Shown here piece by piece: positions 4,052-42,521 of a stretch of DNA of 64,000 nucleotides (position 1 is the stretch's first letter; each line of letters starts with the position of its first letter). Origin of the DNA: Candidatus Kuenenia stuttgartensis (GTDB lineage Bacteria; Planctomycetota; Planctomycetia; Pirellulales; UBA1268); the NCBI GenBank assembly GCA_945897435.1, contig CAMDFJ010000002.1:6031-70030 (forward strand). The letters are read 5' to 3'. The translations under genes were made by a program, and so were the position numbers. The notes under the pieces are model-generated. The model was given only the letters and a program-made list of their open reading frames with translations. It was not told the origin of the DNA and searched no databases.

Positions 4052-4107
4052 AGTATTCCTGGAGAATCCCTGGAAAATCCCTGGCAAATGCTTTGAGAAT
4101 CCCTGAA
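4052..4107 (-). promoter_or_regulatory. tatA leader with phased 11-nt CCAGGGATTYT repeats ending in the Shine-Dalgarno
   Basis: Minus strand reads TTCAGGGATTCTC-AAAGCATTTG-CCAGGGATTTT-CCAGGGATTCT-CCAGGAATACT-G-ATG. Three contiguous 11-nt units, the last carrying the SD, plus one more copy 22 nt upstream. Confidence 0.5.
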
Positions 4108-4152
4108 CGCGAAAAGGCCAGCAGAACCCGTTGCCGCCGTTGGCATGACGGA

Positions 4153-4338
4153 TCAGCGATGGCCGTCGCCTCGGCCGGCGGCATTCTCGTCTTCGATCCC
4201 CTGCACGCCGCGCTTGAACTCGACGATGCCCTCTCCCAGTGAACGCATCACCTTGGGAAGCCGCGAGCCGAAGAGCAGGAGGATCACGCCCGCCACGATG
4301 ATCAGTTCGACCGTACCGAGTCCCATGAAAGCAAACAT
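4153..4338 (-). CDS. tatA: twin-arginine translocase TatA-family protein (short paralogue)
   Basis: Track ORF 4153..4569 trimmed to ATG at 4338 (alternative ATG at 4326). MFAFMGLGTVELIIVAGVILLLFGSRLPKVMRSLGEGIVEFKRG is a canonical TatA core with an FG hinge. Confidence 0.85.
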   Translation of the reverse strand: MFAFMGLGTVELIIVAGVILLLFGSRLPKVMRSLGEGIVEFKRGVQGIEDENAAGRGDGHR

Positions 4339-4527
4339 CTGATGCACCTGAAGGCGTGGCGAGATCTCCACTTGCAGTCTAATCCGAGAGCCGAAGGAAG
4401 CAAATAAAGCCACCTTCGAGGGGCCGGTCTGCCAACTCAGACCGAGGCCGTTTTCGAAGTCGCCGGTGGCTACAGACACCACCGCGCCGGACTGCCACTT
4501 CCTGAGCCGAGACACTCTGGGGGAAAG

Positions 4528-4805
4528 GCCCGCAGACAGGCTGAAGCCTGTCCCACATCGGAAAGACACCAGGCCCGGAGGGCCGGGTCACCACCAGCCG
4601 GCGGAGCCGGCCAAGCAAACAACGGCAGGAGGCCGTGTGTGTGCGTGAAGTAGCCCGCAGACAGGCTGAAGCCTGTCCCACATCGGTCAGACGCCAAAGT
4701 CACACCAAGCCAACCACCCCGCGCCAGGCCCGGAGGGCCGGGTCCACTCCAGCGACCGGAGGTCGCCAAGGAAAATTCGGCAGGAGGCCGAGATTTTCCG
4801 TGAAC
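4528..4805. repeat. two tandem copies of a composite four-hairpin element (H4-H3-H2-H1 in plus-strand order)
   Basis: Plus-strand modules, copy a / copy b. H4 GCCCGCAGACAGGCTGAAGCCTGTCCCACATCGG at 4528-4561 / 4653-4686. H3 CAGGCCCGGAGGGCCGGGTC at 4570-4589 / 4725-4744. H2 CCAGCCGGCGGAGCCGGCCAAG at 4594-4615 versus CCAGCGACCGGAGGTCGCCAAG at 4749-4770. H1 ACGGCAGGAGGCCGT at 4622-4636 versus GGAAAATTCGGCAGGAGGCCGAGATTTTCC at 4770-4799. The element ends 1 nt before the stop codon at 4806-4808. Confidence 0.8.
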
Positions 4806-5384
4806 CTAGTAGTTGGCGTCGCAGCCCCCGTCGACATCGCCCACCATGTGCAGGTGGTCGTGGTCGATGTAGAGCACTTCCTGGCAGTCCTCGTCGACGA
4901 GCGTGTGGGGCACCGGCCAGCCGATCCGCTTCACTTCCTGGAAGTAGACCGTGCACTTGTAGTGGGCGTGGTGCAGCTGGGCCGGGCCGACCAGCGGGTA
5001 GTGCCGGGGCGGATCGAGGTAGTCGGAGATCTTGCACTTCGTGATCCGGACGTTGTTTCGCTGGATCTCGTAGAGGCAGGGCCAGTTGCCCTGCACGGGG
5101 CGGGCCTTCTCGAGCGCCCGCATCACCTCGTCGTCGCTCGGCTCGTCGAGGGCCTGGCAGGGGCCTCCCGGCGGGATCGGTCCGAGGATCGGCGACCGCT
5201 CATACCGCTCGTAGTTCCAGAACTGGTCTTCCTTGCTCTTCTGCAGGCCGACGGGAACCGGGATCGGGAAGGCGAGCGGACCGATGTTCGGGCCCTGCGA
5301 CGTGATCCAGAAGCAGCCGCTCTGCGAGACGCTGCCGGCGGCAACCAACAGGGCCATCGCGAACAATCTGGCTCGAACCTTCAT
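4806..5384 (-). CDS. hypothetical cysteine-rich lipoprotein
   Basis: Track ORF 4806..5564 trimmed to ATG at 5384, preceded by GAGGAG. MKVRARLFAMALLVAAGSVSQSGC looks like a lipoprotein signal with a lipobox-like SGC. GC-rich third positions. I recognise no domain. Confidence 0.7.
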   Translation of the reverse strand: MKVRARLFAMALLVAAGSVSQSGCFWITSQGPNIGPLAFPIPVPVGLQKSKEDQFWNYERYERSPILGPIPPGGPCQALDEPSDDEVMRALEKARPVQGNWPCLYEIQRNNVRITKCKISDYLDPPRHYPLVGPAQLHHAHYKCTVYFQEVKRIGWPVPHTLVDEDCQEVLYIDHDHLHMVGDVDGGCDANY

Positions 5385-5562
5385 GGCGATCTCCTCGGTC
5401 GGCCCGCTGGAAAGTGCTGGTGGATCTGACTGGGTTGGGCCTGCCGGTTGTATCGACCATGCCGCGGGGGAACTTGCGGATTTCTCCGACTGGGGCAGGG
5501 CAGCCGGGCACCGGGGCCGGCGCCCGATCCCGTCGGCCAGGGAGTCGGCACGAGGTGTCAAC

Positions 5563-5630: not shown

Positions 5631-6704
5631 CTAACGGTGGTGGCTGTGGACGTGACGCTCGTCGAAGTCGAGCCACCACCAGCCGTCGTCCCACTCGAGC
5701 GACACCCGCCGCCAGCCCAGTGGCACCTGCGGGTAGGGGTAGAACGGGCCGATGTACGGCCAGGCCGTGGGAGAATACTGGGTCGGATACTGCAGGGCAG
5801 CGTAGTTGGGATACGCCGCGTAGCTCGGCCAGGCGTAGTTGGGCATGTTGGGCCCGTCACCGCGGACGGGAACGGCCATTCCAGGGCCGCCCGGACCACC
5901 GGGACCGCCCATCGCGCCCATCGGCATCGGACCTCCCATACCGCCACCGGGCATGCCGCCTCCGGCCATGCCACCGGCCATGCCGGCCTGACCCGGAGGA
6001 CAGACTGCCTGGGACGACGGTCCCTCGATCATCCGCATGCTGCCCGGAACCATCTGCCCGTCGGCGACGCCGCCGCCATTCACGATCTGCTCGCCGACCA
6101 TCCCTTCGGAATAGCCACCGGCGACAGGCATGTCCATCTGACGCATCGCACTTGTTCGCATCGCCATCCGCTGGCCAGAGGCCGCTCGGGGGGCCGCCTG
6201 CATCGGCCTTGAAACCTGCGGATTGAGCGGCCTCGGGGACGGCCTCGCAGTGCGGGCGGTCGGGGCGACGGCCTGGGTGAGCTGGATCTCTTCCTCCTGC
6301 TCGGTAACGCCGGAATCGGTGTCTGCTTCGGCCTGATCGGCAGCCGCCGCCGGTGCCTCGGTAGGCAGGCCGACGAGGGACCGAACGGAATGCGGAAGCG
6401 CAAAGCGATCGCTGGACTGCGAGGGAGCCTTGATGCCGGTCGAGAGCCGATTCACGACCCGCTCCACGCCATCGACAGACTCGGCCGCAGCGACGGCAGC
6501 CTCGATCTGCTTGGGGTCGGATACGGTGCCCTCGAGCCAGACGGTGCCGGCCTTTGCCTTGACATTGACCCGGTAGCCCTTCATCGCACCGGAATCACGG
6601 AGTTTACCGGCGACTGTCGCCGCCAGGTCATCGGCTCGCAGGGCTGTCGTCATCAACGACGACAGCACGGCAGCCGCCAGGAACGCGGACCTCGAAATGG
6701 ACAT
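5631..6704 (-). CDS. BON domain-containing secreted protein with Met/Gly/Pro-rich low-complexity region
   Basis: Signal peptide MSISRSAFLAAAVLSSLMTTALRADD. BON-like segment KGYRVNVKAKAGTVWLEGTVSDPKQIEAAVAAAESVDGVERVVNRL. Then a GGMAGGGMPGGGMGGPMPMGAMGGPGGPGGPGM tract and an aromatic/His-rich C-terminus (WWWLDFDERHVHSHHR). Confidence 0.8.
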   Translation of the reverse strand: MSISRSAFLAAAVLSSLMTTALRADDLAATVAGKLRDSGAMKGYRVNVKAKAGTVWLEGTVSDPKQIEAAVAAAESVDGVERVVNRLSTGIKAPSQSSDRFALPHSVRSLVGLPTEAPAAAADQAEADTDSGVTEQEEEIQLTQAVAPTARTARPSPRPLNPQVSRPMQAAPRAASGQRMAMRTSAMRQMDMPVAGGYSEGMVGEQIVNGGGVADGQMVPGSMRMIEGPSSQAVCPPGQAGMAGGMAGGGMPGGGMGGPMPMGAMGGPGGPGGPGMAVPVRGDGPNMPNYAWPSYAAYPNYAALQYPTQYSPTAWPYIGPFYPYPQVPLGWRRVSLEWDDGWWWLDFDERHVHSHHR

Positions 6705-6863
6705 GAAAGACTCCTTTGGGCGGCATGGCAGATGGGGCCACTGCTGGAGTCTTTTTCGGCCGCCGGTCCTGTCGAAGGGGAGTTTTTTTCCGGTTTGCGC
6801 GAAAACGCCGCGCGTCCGGGTGGTCTGGGAGGGAAGGGAAGACAGGCCCGATCGAAAGGAGCG

Positions 6864-9362: not shown

Positions 9363-9436
9363 GCGCGCGTAGCTCAGTTGGTTAGAGCGCTACCCTGATA
9401 AGGTAGAGGTCCCAAGTTCGAATCTTGGCGCGCGCA
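9363..9436 (+). tRNA. tRNA-Ile (anticodon GAU)
   Basis: GCGCGCG-TA-GCTC-AGTTGGTTA-GAGC-G-CTACC-CTGATAA-GGTAG-AGGTC-CCAAG-TTCGAAT-CTTGG-CGCGCGC-A forms a complete cloverleaf by hand. Confidence 0.95.
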
Positions 9437-9444
9437 TATGGATG

Positions 9445-9570
9445 GAGGCCGCGGTCCCGGCCGCGGCAGAGGGCAGGCGAGGCCGCGGTCCCGGCCGCGG
9501 CGGTGAGGGCAGGAACTTCGCGGAAGGAAATGCCGTTGTACGGACACCATGTCCCGGCCGCGGCGGTAGC
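9445..9570 (+). repeat. tandem GC-hairpin repeats in the tRNA-Ile/tRNA-Ala spacer
   Basis: GAGGCCGCGGTCCCGGCCGCGGCAGAGGGCAGG at 9445-9477 and GAGGCCGCGGTCCCGGCCGCGGCGGTGAGGGCAGG at 9479-9513, plus a half copy GTCCCGGCCGCGGCGGTAGC at 9551-9570. Each full copy can form GCCGCGG-UCCCGG-CCGCGGC, a 7-bp stem. Confidence 0.75.
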
Positions 9571-9583
9571 TTCAGCCAAAAAT

Positions 9584-9657
<74 letters not shown>

Positions 9658-27182: not shown

Positions 27183-27421
27183 GAAATCCTCGGAAGAGCA
27201 GGCCAGGCTCGGGGGCCACCGAGACTGGAGAACGAAACACCGGAATTGCCTTGCAGCCGTTCTGCAGGTACGCTCCGAAACCGACCTTCTGCAGCATACC
27301 CGCTCCAGAAGATTGCTTGCGACGCGGGCAGCAGGCGGCTCTGTCGCAGGAACGCGGCAGACGTCCGGCCGGCATCGCTTCGCAGGCCCTCGGCTTCGAA
27401 GGTTCGCGACGGAAGTCCCTT

Positions 27422-27492
27422 TGGGGAATGGTGTAACGGTAGCACGACTGGCTCTGAACCAGTTAGTCTAGGTTCGAATCCTAGTTCCCCAG
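27422..27492 (+). tRNA. tRNA-Gln (anticodon CUG)
   Basis: TGGGGAA-TG-GTGT-AACGGTA-GCAC-G-ACTGG-CTCTGAA-CCAGT-TAGT-CTAGG-TTCGAAT-CCTAG-TTCCCCA-G. The U1:A72 pair and G73 are typical of bacterial tRNA-Gln. Confidence 0.95.
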
Positions 27493-27516
27493 TTTTTTCC
27501 TAGTTCCCCAGTTTTT
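27480..27516 (+). repeat. tandem duplication of the tRNA-Gln 3' end
   Basis: CCTAGTTCCCCAGTTTTT occurs at 27480-27497 (the last 13 nt of the tRNA plus a T-run) and again at 27499-27516. Confidence 0.7.
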
Positions 27517-27517
27517 A

Positions 27518-27605
27518 ACCTCACGCGCCGGTGGGCTTGCCGGGACATTGCCGGCGAGATGGTCTGTCCGGCTTTGACCTCACCCGCCGGTGGGCTTGCC
27601 GGGAC
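27518..27605 (+). repeat. pair of ~29-bp direct repeats upstream of the receiver-cyclase gene
   Basis: AACCTCACGCGCCGGTGGGCTTGCCGGGAC at 27518-27546 and ACCTCACCCGCCGGTGGGCTTGCCGGGAC at 27577-27605, 59 bp apart. The second copy ends 13 nt before the ATG at 27619. Confidence 0.7.
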
Positions 27606-28716: not shown

Positions 28717-28775
28717 CGCCATTCAACAGCCGCCGCAGCTTGTTCCTTCCTGACTCAGACCCTCAAACCAGAGAT

Positions 28776-28856
28776 CAGGCCCGGACGACAGGGCAGGAAC
28801 CAGCGACCGGAGATCGCCGAGGAACATTCGGCAGGATGCCGAGATTTTCGATGAAC
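28776..28856. repeat. third copy of the composite hairpin element (H3-H2-H1), abutting the corA stop codon
   Basis: Gapless 81-nt hand alignment with 4725-4805. About 51 of the 57 stop-proximal nt are identical, and about 66 of 81 overall. Plus strand: CAGGCCCGGACGACAGGGCAGG AA CCAGCGACCGGAGATCGCCGAG GAACATTCGGCAGGATGCCGAGATTTTCG ATGAAC, followed directly by the corA stop at 28857. Confidence 0.75.
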
Positions 28857-30011
28857 TCAGTGCCAACGTTTGAGCCAGCCCCTGCGCCAGAAAAACACCA
28901 CCATCCCCGAGACGGTCAGCAGCATGATGCCGACGGCGACGATCGCGCCGTAGCGATAGGTGAGCAGGGGCATGTTCCAGGGAGAACTCGTGTCGAAGTT
29001 CATCCCGTAGTATCCGGTGATGAACGTCAGCGGCATGAAGATCGTGGCGATGACGGTGAGGAGTTTCATCACGTCATTCATCCGGTTGTTGAGGCTGGCC
29101 AGGTAGATGTCCCTCAGGTCGCTGCCGATCTCCCGATAGCTCTCCATCAGGTCGAGCAGTTCCATGGTGTGGTCGTAGGAGTCGCGGAAGTGGGCCCGGG
29201 CATGGTCGCCGACGAGAGGGGTGGGTTCCCTGCCGAGGGCGTGGAGCAGGTCCCGGGTCGGCCAGAGCGCCCGCCGCAGCGTCATCAGGTCGTTTCGCAC
29301 ATCGTGGATTCCGACCAGCGAGGTCCTCGAAGGACGATCGAGGGCCTCCTCCTCGAGTGATTCGAGCCGGTCGCCGAACCGCTCCAGCACCGGGAAATAT
29401 CCGTCGATCAGCACGTCCAGCAGGAAGGCGCAGAGGGCGTCACAGCCCTCCCGGCCGATGTGGGTGCGGCCATGGCGAATCCGGTCGCGGACGAGGTCGA
29501 AGGGATCGGGGGCGGACTGTTCCCGGAATGTGATCAGATAGCGGTCGCCGAGGAAGATGCCTACGGGATCGGTGACGATCGCATCCCCGTCGAACCGCAC
29601 GGTGCGGGCCGCCACCAGCACCTGATGGCCGAACACCTCCACCTTCGGCCGCTCATCCGGCGTGACGGCGTCCTCGAGGGCGAGTTCTTCGATCTCGAAG
29701 ACGTCGCCGATCAGCCTGTTGGTGGCCAGATCCTCGAGCCCCTCGATGTCGATCCAGACGACCGGCCACTTCTCTCTGGCGACCGTCAACTGCTCGGGAC
29801 GGATGATGGTGGTCTCCTCGACCTGCGTCCCGTCGCAGCAGAGCATCCGCAGGATGGCGGGACGCTCGAGGGCGGACTCTTCCCCGTCGTCATTGCCGCT
29901 CAGCGTCATCAGGGGCGTTGCCGCCGACGGGGCGGACGATCCATCGACTGGTGGATTTTTTGGATAGGCGTGACGATGGCGGCGACGGCGACGCTGTTTC
30001 CGATGTGACAT
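28857..30011 (-). CDS. corA: magnesium/cobalt transporter CorA
   Basis: The C-terminal two TM helices carry FMPLTFITGYYGMNF (the YGMNF signature). The N-terminal soluble domain is of CorA size. The start is uncertain because the first ~30 residues are very basic. Confidence 0.85.
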   Translation of the reverse strand: MSHRKQRRRRRHRHAYPKNPPVDGSSAPSAATPLMTLSGNDDGEESALERPAILRMLCCDGTQVEETTIIRPEQLTVAREKWPVVWIDIEGLEDLATNRLIGDVFEIEELALEDAVTPDERPKVEVFGHQVLVAARTVRFDGDAIVTDPVGIFLGDRYLITFREQSAPDPFDLVRDRIRHGRTHIGREGCDALCAFLLDVLIDGYFPVLERFGDRLESLEEEALDRPSRTSLVGIHDVRNDLMTLRRALWPTRDLLHALGREPTPLVGDHARAHFRDSYDHTMELLDLMESYREIGSDLRDIYLASLNNRMNDVMKLLTVIATIFMPLTFITGYYGMNFDTSSPWNMPLLTYRYGAIVAVGIMLLTVSGMVVFFWRRGWLKRWH

Positions 30012-42493: not shown

Positions 42494-42521
42494 CCGGATG
42501 TGGGACAGGCTTCAGCCTGTC
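42494..42521. repeat. isolated inverted copy of the H4 palindromic element
   Basis: The plus strand CCGGATGTGGGACAGGCTTCAGCCTGTC matches the reverse complement of the 4528-4561 and 4653-4686 element (GACAGGC-NNNN-GCCTGTC followed by CCCACATC). Confidence 0.7.

Follow-up and report, generated by a model that had tools for sequence, protein, structure and literature searches.

The window analysed here is a 64-kb stretch of contig CAMDFJ010000002.1, and its positions 4528-4805 hold a cluster of hairpins in the probable 3' untranslated region (UTR) of a lipoprotein gene of an uncultured freshwater planctomycete of the Pirellulales type. Read on the minus strand, the cluster consists of two head-to-tail units, A and B, each made up of hairpins H1, H2 and H3 followed by a fourth hairpin, H4 (coordinates in Table 1), and its first base is the base directly after the TAG (4808-4806) of the gene at 4806-5384. 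A preliminary description of this stretch had proposed two such four-hairpin units, and they were confirmed by the minus-strand reading and by a repeat finder, which returned the H1-H3 part as an 81-nt repeat pair (78% identity, spacing 155) and the H4 part as a 44-nt repeat pair (93% identity, spacing 125). The compensatory changes that it had pointed out in H2 hold as well: three pairs are altered on both arms between units A and B, and pairing is intact in each copy.

Compared with shuffled sequences, the cluster folds more stably on either strand (z = -3.95 for the minus and z = -3.82 for the plus strand), with near-equal values that do not tell the strands apart. At gathering thresholds, the Rfam search of the window matched tRNAs alone, and the search of positions 4300-4900 with E up to 10 gave best scores of 12 bits (88.5 required) and 10 bits (218 required). 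The lipoprotein-like open reading frame (ORF) upstream matched no Pfam family. Downstream, approximately 190 nt without repeats separate the cluster from the start codon of tatA.

The H1-H3 module forms a dispersed family with covarying stems

A pattern scan of one genome per species, in which the top of H1, the loops and the flanks were fixed and the stems left free, returned 50 stretches. Approximately 41 of these were true copies, mostly from metagenome-assembled genomes (MAGs) of freshwater Pirellulales/Planctomycetia (Lake Mendota, Lac Pavin, and others), and several stretches contained two or three tandem units. Covariance model R1 gave 65 matches across 41 MAG loci (E up to 0.001; individual loci are given L numbers below), and the alignment comprised 44 distinct copies over 88 nt. 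The module is thus a dispersed multi-copy family present across many related genomes. On the window itself, the model returned the three copies that had been counted before, units A, B and C (scores in Table 1), and the next best match reached 17.5 bits. Unit C begins directly after the TGA (28857-28859) of a CorA gene (28857-30011, minus strand; Pfam CorA match), and the CorA orthologue in L013 carries an H1-H3 module at the identical place. An exact-protein look-up of this CorA retrieved no record. For H4, an 18-mer occurs three times in the window versus 0.02 occurrences expected.

The consensus plan of the module is N-TWCAC, H1, UUG, H2, UGG plus approximately 8 nt, H3, and CUGG, with a UGG 3' of every hairpin. 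H1 is a 12-bp hairpin interrupted by a bulge of one base, its upper stem (CGGC/GCCG) being invariant and its loop AUCCU; H2 has 6 bp and a UCC loop; the loop of H3 is (C/A)UCC(G/A). Loop variants elsewhere in the family are AUCGU, UUCGU, and AUCAU. The earlier statement that the loops carry UCC, mostly as CCUCC, therefore needs narrowing: CCUCC holds in the lineage of the window only, UCC alone is common across the family, and strains close to the window have UUCGU or AUUCU. A conserved reading frame is absent from the module.

In the 44-copy alignment, 16 of the 26 stem pairs are altered on both sides, and all three stems covary strongly. The covariation score was 0.347, versus 0.104 in shuffles (0 of 500 reached the observed value) and ≤0.096 in slid controls, and RNAalifold recovered the identical helices; the stems of the module are kept by compensatory change. 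Pair types were also counted for their bearing on the strand. After removal of alignment artefacts (the bulge and the outer pairs of H3), G-U and A-C counts in the covarying stems were about equal. Minimum free energy folds contained 154 G-U pairs in the sense versus 83 in the other strand at equal energies, the excess coming from the G/U-rich linkers.

Arrays are oriented with the upstream gene and often start at its stop codon

The contact with a stop codon that had been noted at the lipoprotein gene recurs family-wide. In 23 of the 47 arrays, the first base directly follows the stop codon of an ORF that is long, lies on the same strand, and has a high G+C content at third codon positions; two more arrays begin within 2 nt. 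TAG, TGA, and TAA are all used as adjoining stop codons. By chance, 0.02 stop-abutting arrays would be expected, or 0.2 if only intergenic positions are considered (P < 1e-40); about half of the arrays do not adjoin a stop codon. Immediately 5' of the stop codon, a C was found in 17 of 18 independent host gene families versus a background of 33% (P = 1e-7).

By crude gene calls, the upstream gene is co-oriented with the array in approximately 38 of the 41 arrays with a callable upstream gene, and there are essentially no intragenic copies. The covariance-model scan with orientation tally suggested in the preliminary description came out on the side of oriented, extragenic copies with compensated stems. 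Downstream of the arrays, convergent and co-directional genes are about equally common. Exceptions to the orientation are L010, where a cluster of co-directional genes contains three antisense arrays, and L095, L102, and L121, with antisense units away from any stop codon. The hosts encode a class II tRNA synthetase, Rho, PurH, DnaB, ribonucleotide reductase, a TrxB-like reductase, CorA, a Rieske protein, an outer-membrane protein, and several proteins with domains of unknown function. As these are unrelated housekeeping genes, the family is not a regulon. One host, the ribonucleotide reductase large subunit in L024 (2933-6541), carries an intein with a LAGLIDADG domain.

H4 is a tagged REP-type hairpin

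Directly 5' of its GAC(A/G)GGC stem (in the orientation with the UUCA loop), H4 has a four-base tag, which is GTAG at 17 and GTGG at 12 sites of the fetched loci and GTGG in the copies of the window. The tag is unpaired and precedes a stem of 7 bp with a loop of 4 nt (4-6 nt across sites). Distinct tagged sites number 24 in approximately 0.76 Mb of fetched loci, and three lie in the window. An unpaired tag and a short GC-rich stem-loop in many dispersed extragenic copies are the marks of GTAG-type repetitive extragenic palindromes (REPs), and judged by its sequence, H4 is an ordinary GTAG/GTGG-tagged REP hairpin. GTAG-tagged REPs are known in the Planctomycetes-Verrucomicrobia-Chlamydiae superphylum and are reported to be located ≤20 bp from 3' ends of genes and often to supply the stop codon (PMC3733652). 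Contact with a stop codon therefore has a precedent in such elements, and in the loci studied here, a long ORF terminates with the TAG of the H4 tag at 4 of the 24 distinct sites. As REPs of these genomes lie next to stop codons too, this contact is not specific to the H1-H3 module.

Variation at the lipoprotein locus

The locus was compared across 80 orthologous lipoprotein loci from lake metagenomes (81-91% protein identity). All orthologues end with DANF/Y-stop at the same residue, whether repeats are present or not; the stop codon thus belongs to the gene itself and does not come from the element. The R1 subtype of the module is present in just a few of them. Most GC-rich orthologues have an H1-type hairpin right after the stop codon, with the loop AUCC(A)U and compensated outer stems, and low-GC relatives have a canonical hairpin plus T-run terminator at that place (L114, L119, L123-L126). 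In L051 and L052, the closest orthologues without the module, a near-perfect inverted repeat with approximately 30 bp per arm directly follows the lipoprotein stop codon (GTGTCAAAAAGGTGTCAGGACTCTTTTCCGG ... CCGGAAAAGAGTCCTGACACCTTTTTGAC); the place of the module is here taken by a different hairpin element.

Near-identical strains, defined as contigs encoding the identical 192-aa lipoprotein, differ in the spacer to tatA. This is 467 nt in the window and in L131 (units A and B) and 341 nt in L133 and L139, which have unit A alone, the difference being one unit bounded by the repeated REP. In L132, the spacer of 554 nt contains an inverted REP and an extra insert of approximately 150 nt holding a further repeat type; L135-L137 have the same arrangement, with contigs ending inside this insert. 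L134 and L138, with contigs that do not span the spacer, have a single unit in which an A-type H1/H2 is joined to a B-type H3-H4 junction. Arrays thus gain, lose, recombine, and invert modules between strains. Among the same strains, a U-A pair of H1 is replaced by C-G, a compensated change, and the H1 loop reads CCUCCU, CAUCCU, CUUCGU, or CAUUCU; given this variation, the UCC/GGA loop is dispensable over a very short evolutionary time. Within one genome (L013, L033), copies at separate loci are nearly identical, whereas the orthologous copies of L018 and L033, both after dnaB, differ in the stems of H1 and H2. That copies within a genome are more alike than orthologous ones is a sign of concerted evolution and points to gene conversion between copies or to their replacement.

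A further repeated module, GGTCGGCG(G/A)A(A/T)GCTCGAGGAGC(A/G)TTTGGACCGAG, was found inside or beside clusters in L132 (approximately 2215-2330), L135-L137, L033, and L037. The L037 copy lies directly 5' of the Shine-Dalgarno sequence and ATG of the next gene.

Other features of the window

The last 13 nt of a tRNA-Gln gene and a T-run are duplicated directly after the gene at positions 27421-27515 (cctagttccccagtttttt then cctagttccccagttttt), which looks like the att-site scar of an integrating element. A small repeat, CCTCACGCGCCGGTGGGCTTGCCGGG, occurs twice after this tRNA gene with a 59-nt period (27514-27546 and 27573-27605); its reverse complement occurs twice in L013 (2409-2465), immediately behind the R1 module that follows the CorA orthologue. 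At 9363-9657, genes for tRNA-Ile(GAT) and tRNA-Ala(TGC) adjoin, and the window contains no rRNA gene. Unlinked rRNA genes are common in Planctomycetes, and a tRNA-Ile/tRNA-Ala pair without rRNA fits this.

Table 1 Positions of the hairpin units and their gene setting in the window.
Feature	Position	Strand	Description
Host gene	4806..5384	minus	192-aa lipoprotein-like ORF; signal peptide then Cys; ends DANY-TAG; stop 4806-4808
Unit A, three-hairpin module	4718..4805	minus	GUUCAC spacer first; covariance model R1 93.9 bits
Unit A H1	4799-4770	minus	GGAAAAU(C)UCGGC-CUCCU-GCCGAAUUUUCC
Unit A H2	4766-4752	minus	GCGACC-UCC-GGUCGC
Unit A H3	4739-4727	minus	GGCCC-UCC-GGGCC; 45-nt spacer to H4
Unit A H4, GTGG-tagged REP hairpin	4681-4660	minus	GUGG-GACAGGC-UUCA-GCCUGUC
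Unit B, three-hairpin module	4563..4650	minus	CUUCAC spacer first; covariance model R1 91.5 bits
Unit B H1	4644-4615	minus	
Unit B H2	4611-4597	minus	GCCGGC-UCC-GCCGGC
Unit B H3	4584-4572	minus	
Unit B H4, GTGG-tagged REP hairpin	4556-4535	minus	
tatA, downstream gene	4153..4338	minus	61 aa; Pfam TatA_B_E
Unit C, third module copy	28769..28856	minus	Degenerate H3; covariance model R1 64.8 bits
Solo GTGG-tagged REP hairpin, H4 type	42500..42521	plus	Intergenic

Discussion

The cluster is probably a mosaic of short non-coding hairpin repeats in mRNA 3' UTRs, similar to REP clusters, to the bacterial interspersed mosaic elements (BIMEs) of enterobacteria, and to the Neisseria intergenic mosaic elements (NIMEs). 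Its two repeat types are the module of approximately 88 nt with three hairpins and the GTAG/GTGG-tagged REP hairpin H4. The cluster would be transcribed as the tail of the upstream mRNA, where the GC-rich hairpins may serve as generic 3'-end barriers to exonucleases or read-through, as proposed for REPs. Copies may be spread and homogenised at the DNA level, by an enzyme of the HUH type such as an REP-associated tyrosine transposase (RAYT) acting on single-stranded hairpins and/or by recombination and gene conversion. The conserved loops and flanks would then reflect recent common ancestry or recognition by the spreading machinery, with no dedicated regulatory code.

Several observations weigh against this interpretation. 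The spacing of exactly one base, which holds for all three stop codons, and the C before the stop codon are sharper than mere tolerance in 3' UTRs predicts. The module has neither a GTAG or CGTC tag nor terminal inverted repeats nor a target duplication, and its head-to-tail arrangement is unusual for REPs, the dimers of which are mainly head-to-head or tail-to-tail (PMC3733652). A tblastn search with approximate query sequences of RAYT and the IS608 (IS200/IS605-type) TnpA gave no match in the window or in 139 loci (approximately 1 Mb). Finally, the persistence of an H1-like hairpin after the lipoprotein stop codon across lineages with 81-91% identity is likewise more than such tolerance predicts and could reflect selection for an RNA function there. 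The phasing may result from a C-TRR target preference of an IS200/RAYT-like enzyme together with purifying selection; in this DNA-level variant, it is possible that an HUH-type enzyme with a C-TRR target makes stop codons the preferred landing site. There is in our estimate only a small chance that these features stem from a dedicated RNA function in which the terminating ribosome genuinely needs a hairpin at its mouth.

Such a function can be worded in two ways. In one, the module is a selected cis-acting 3'-UTR RNA element whose function is linked with translation termination or with a specific RNA-binding protein; at the mRNA-channel entrance of the terminating ribosome, H1 would modulate termination, recycling, mRNA decay, or downstream events, and mobility would be secondary. 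The start of TWCAC one base behind the stop in 23 arrays, whichever of the three stop codons is used, the C at position -1, and an orientation that follows the upstream gene almost strictly are in line with this, as are the conserved bulge and upper stem, which are typical of protein-binding hairpins. The lipoprotein locus adds an H1-type hairpin kept in many lineages with compensated outer stems, at the place of an ordinary terminator in low-GC relatives. We nevertheless consider this explanation unlikely, because loops vary even with an identical host protein (CUUCGU and AUUCU replace UCC-containing loops), strains differ freely in unit number, about half of the arrays are not at a stop codon, and antisense copies exist (three arrays in L010; L095, L102, L121); in addition, the host genes have no common function and REPs in the same genomes abut stop codons, too. 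In the other wording, which we hold to be rather unlikely, the module is a mobile yet functional 3'-UTR RNA device required one base after the stop codon, with the bulged H1 being read by the ribosome or a dedicated protein. If true, it would set termination or recycling efficiency, the fate of the mRNA 3' end, or coupling to the next gene, and would represent a termination-phased class of RNA elements spreading between genes. It is distinctly improbable that the array is simply the lineage's tandem-hairpin transcription terminator lacking a U-tract, without mobile-element character. The array does occupy the place of the canonical hairpin and T-run of low-GC relatives, and a same-strand hairpin with T-run follows within 230 nt in only 4 of 36 arrays (some of these are doubtful and the baseline is also low). 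However, convergence cannot account for module shuffling or for 88-nt copies that are nearly identical at unrelated loci, the module is carried by just 2 of approximately 42 genes of the window, and no T-run follows H1-H4, as an intrinsic terminator would have; the terminator-scan matches at the cluster are the A/T-rich lower stems of H1. A canonical intrinsic terminator, a GC hairpin followed by T7 (GGCCCGCCCTCCCGG...GGGGGGGCGGG), is present after the gene 5631-6863 on the minus strand, and the organism therefore uses ordinary terminators as well.

The preliminary description had further offered one reading for each strand. For the minus strand, it had envisaged a 3' UTR displaying loops like an anti-Shine-Dalgarno sequence. 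The orientation of the family agrees with the 3' UTR; the anti-Shine-Dalgarno part is weak because UCC, not CCUCC, is common across the family and UCC is lost in some copies. For the plus strand, a CsrB/RsmZ-like small RNA (sRNA) with six GGA-loop hairpins titrating CsrA had been suggested, which is contradicted by several results and very improbable. The plus strand of 4528-4805 does present six GGA loops: those of H1 have the sequence CAGGAGG in the window and CAGGAUG in most family members, the latter of which we take to resemble the CsrB repeat, and H2 and H3 have CGGAG-type loops. The absence of any csrA homologue, named at the outset as fatal to a sponge, probably does not apply, since a related MAG encodes a CsrA homologue of 74 aa (L038 488-712, minus strand, MLVLTRKNRESVVIG...); none was found in the window. 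The ORFs that flank this csrA gene share the motif GEIEAAVCD.ISRFQQE, and 1.6 kb away from csrA there is an R1 module, itself located upstream of a 992-aa ORF. The family is, however, placed and oriented by the stop codon of the opposite-strand gene at dozens of unrelated loci, as an independent sRNA gene with one or few loci would not be. No sigma-70-like promoter was found on either strand of 4100-5500, and the sole plus-strand terminator-like match there is the H1 hairpin itself (4776-4792). Moreover, GGA is lost in close strains, for example in L132-L138 (ACGAAG on the plus strand), and in other copies, and copy number differs between strains. CsrA of Planctomycetes is thought to be controlled by FliW, and sRNA antagonists are tied to BarA-UvrY in gamma-proteobacteria (PMC4682653), which also speaks against a sponge. 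Covariation plus GGA/UCC loops alone are insufficient to identify a regulatory sRNA.

Further candidates were rejected. Integron attC sites do not fit, as a GTTRRRY core is lacking and long housekeeping genes serve as hosts. Selenocysteine or pyrrolysine insertion elements (SECIS, PYLIS) were dropped in view of the use of all three stop codons, and a read-through peptide in view of indels and of stems that covary as structure. A CGTC-type REP tag on the module was discarded on account of the mirrored order of its flanks, and pairing of the stop-codon region with the 3' flank because it is inconsistent across copies. A miniature inverted-repeat transposable element would be expected to have an inverted repeat joining the ends of the unit or cluster, and none was found there; filled and empty strain variants differ by the REP-bounded unit, with no short target duplication.

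Returning to the mosaic of hairpin repeats, several known systems share part of its features. BIMEs and NIMEs are mosaic intergenic repeat clusters after genes that are built of few short module types, are polymorphic, and recombine, and the cluster is like them in its variable number and order of modules after genes, its strain polymorphism, and its module recombination. BIMEs alternate the orientation of their REPs and have defined linker motifs that bind integration host factor or gyrase; in contrast, the units of the cluster are direct repeats, their sequences are unrelated to those of BIMEs and NIMEs, and the first unit keeps a set phase relative to the stop codon. BOX elements of Streptococcus pneumoniae have a modular A-B-C order, a variable repeat number, and predicted stable RNA folds, all of which are paralleled in the cluster, although the sequences show no relationship. 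Mycobacterial interspersed repetitive units (MIRUs) are arranged head to tail in the orientation of the flanking genes, contact or overlap stop codons, and contain small ORFs bridging stop and start codons within operons. The cluster resembles them in its head-to-tail units, co-orientation with genes, and stop contact; unlike MIRUs, to which it has no sequence relationship, its module has no conserved reading frame and has stems that covary as structure. With GTAG REPs (Di Nocera et al. 2013, PMC3733652), H4 shares the unpaired tag, the short GC-rich stem-loop, the dispersed extragenic location downstream of ORFs, and a TAG that is sometimes the stop codon, and the whole cluster shares the location at gene 3' ends and the variation between isolates. 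H1-H3, unlike members of the REP superfamily, is a composite of three distinct hairpins in fixed order, arranged head to tail, without a GTAG or CGTC tag, and no RAYT was seen. Only the several GGA-containing hairpin loops within approximately 230 nt of the plus strand recall CsrB/RsmZ sRNAs; the plus-strand cluster differs in being no independent gene, in lying antisense to and in phase with a stop codon, in belonging to a dispersed family, and in having no conserved GGA. The initial view that the element belongs to no described class thus stands for H1-H3, for which neither a literature description nor an Rfam match was found, and falls for H4, a known GTAG-type REP, and for the behaviour of the cluster, which is that of REP/BIME/NIME mosaics.

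An undescribed hairpin-repeat family from uncultured freshwater Planctomycetes hereby joins the REP/BIME-type elements. The strain-level variation makes the spacers useful as markers in lake metagenomes, and it is plausible that repeats of this kind cause contig breaks in MAG assemblies. The family stands out by its unusually clean stop-codon phasing, with fixed one-base spacing in 23 of 47 arrays. If this phasing reflects insertion specificity, it would show how such elements choose gene ends; if it reflects selection, it would indicate a role of stop-adjacent hairpins in the biology of mRNA 3' ends.

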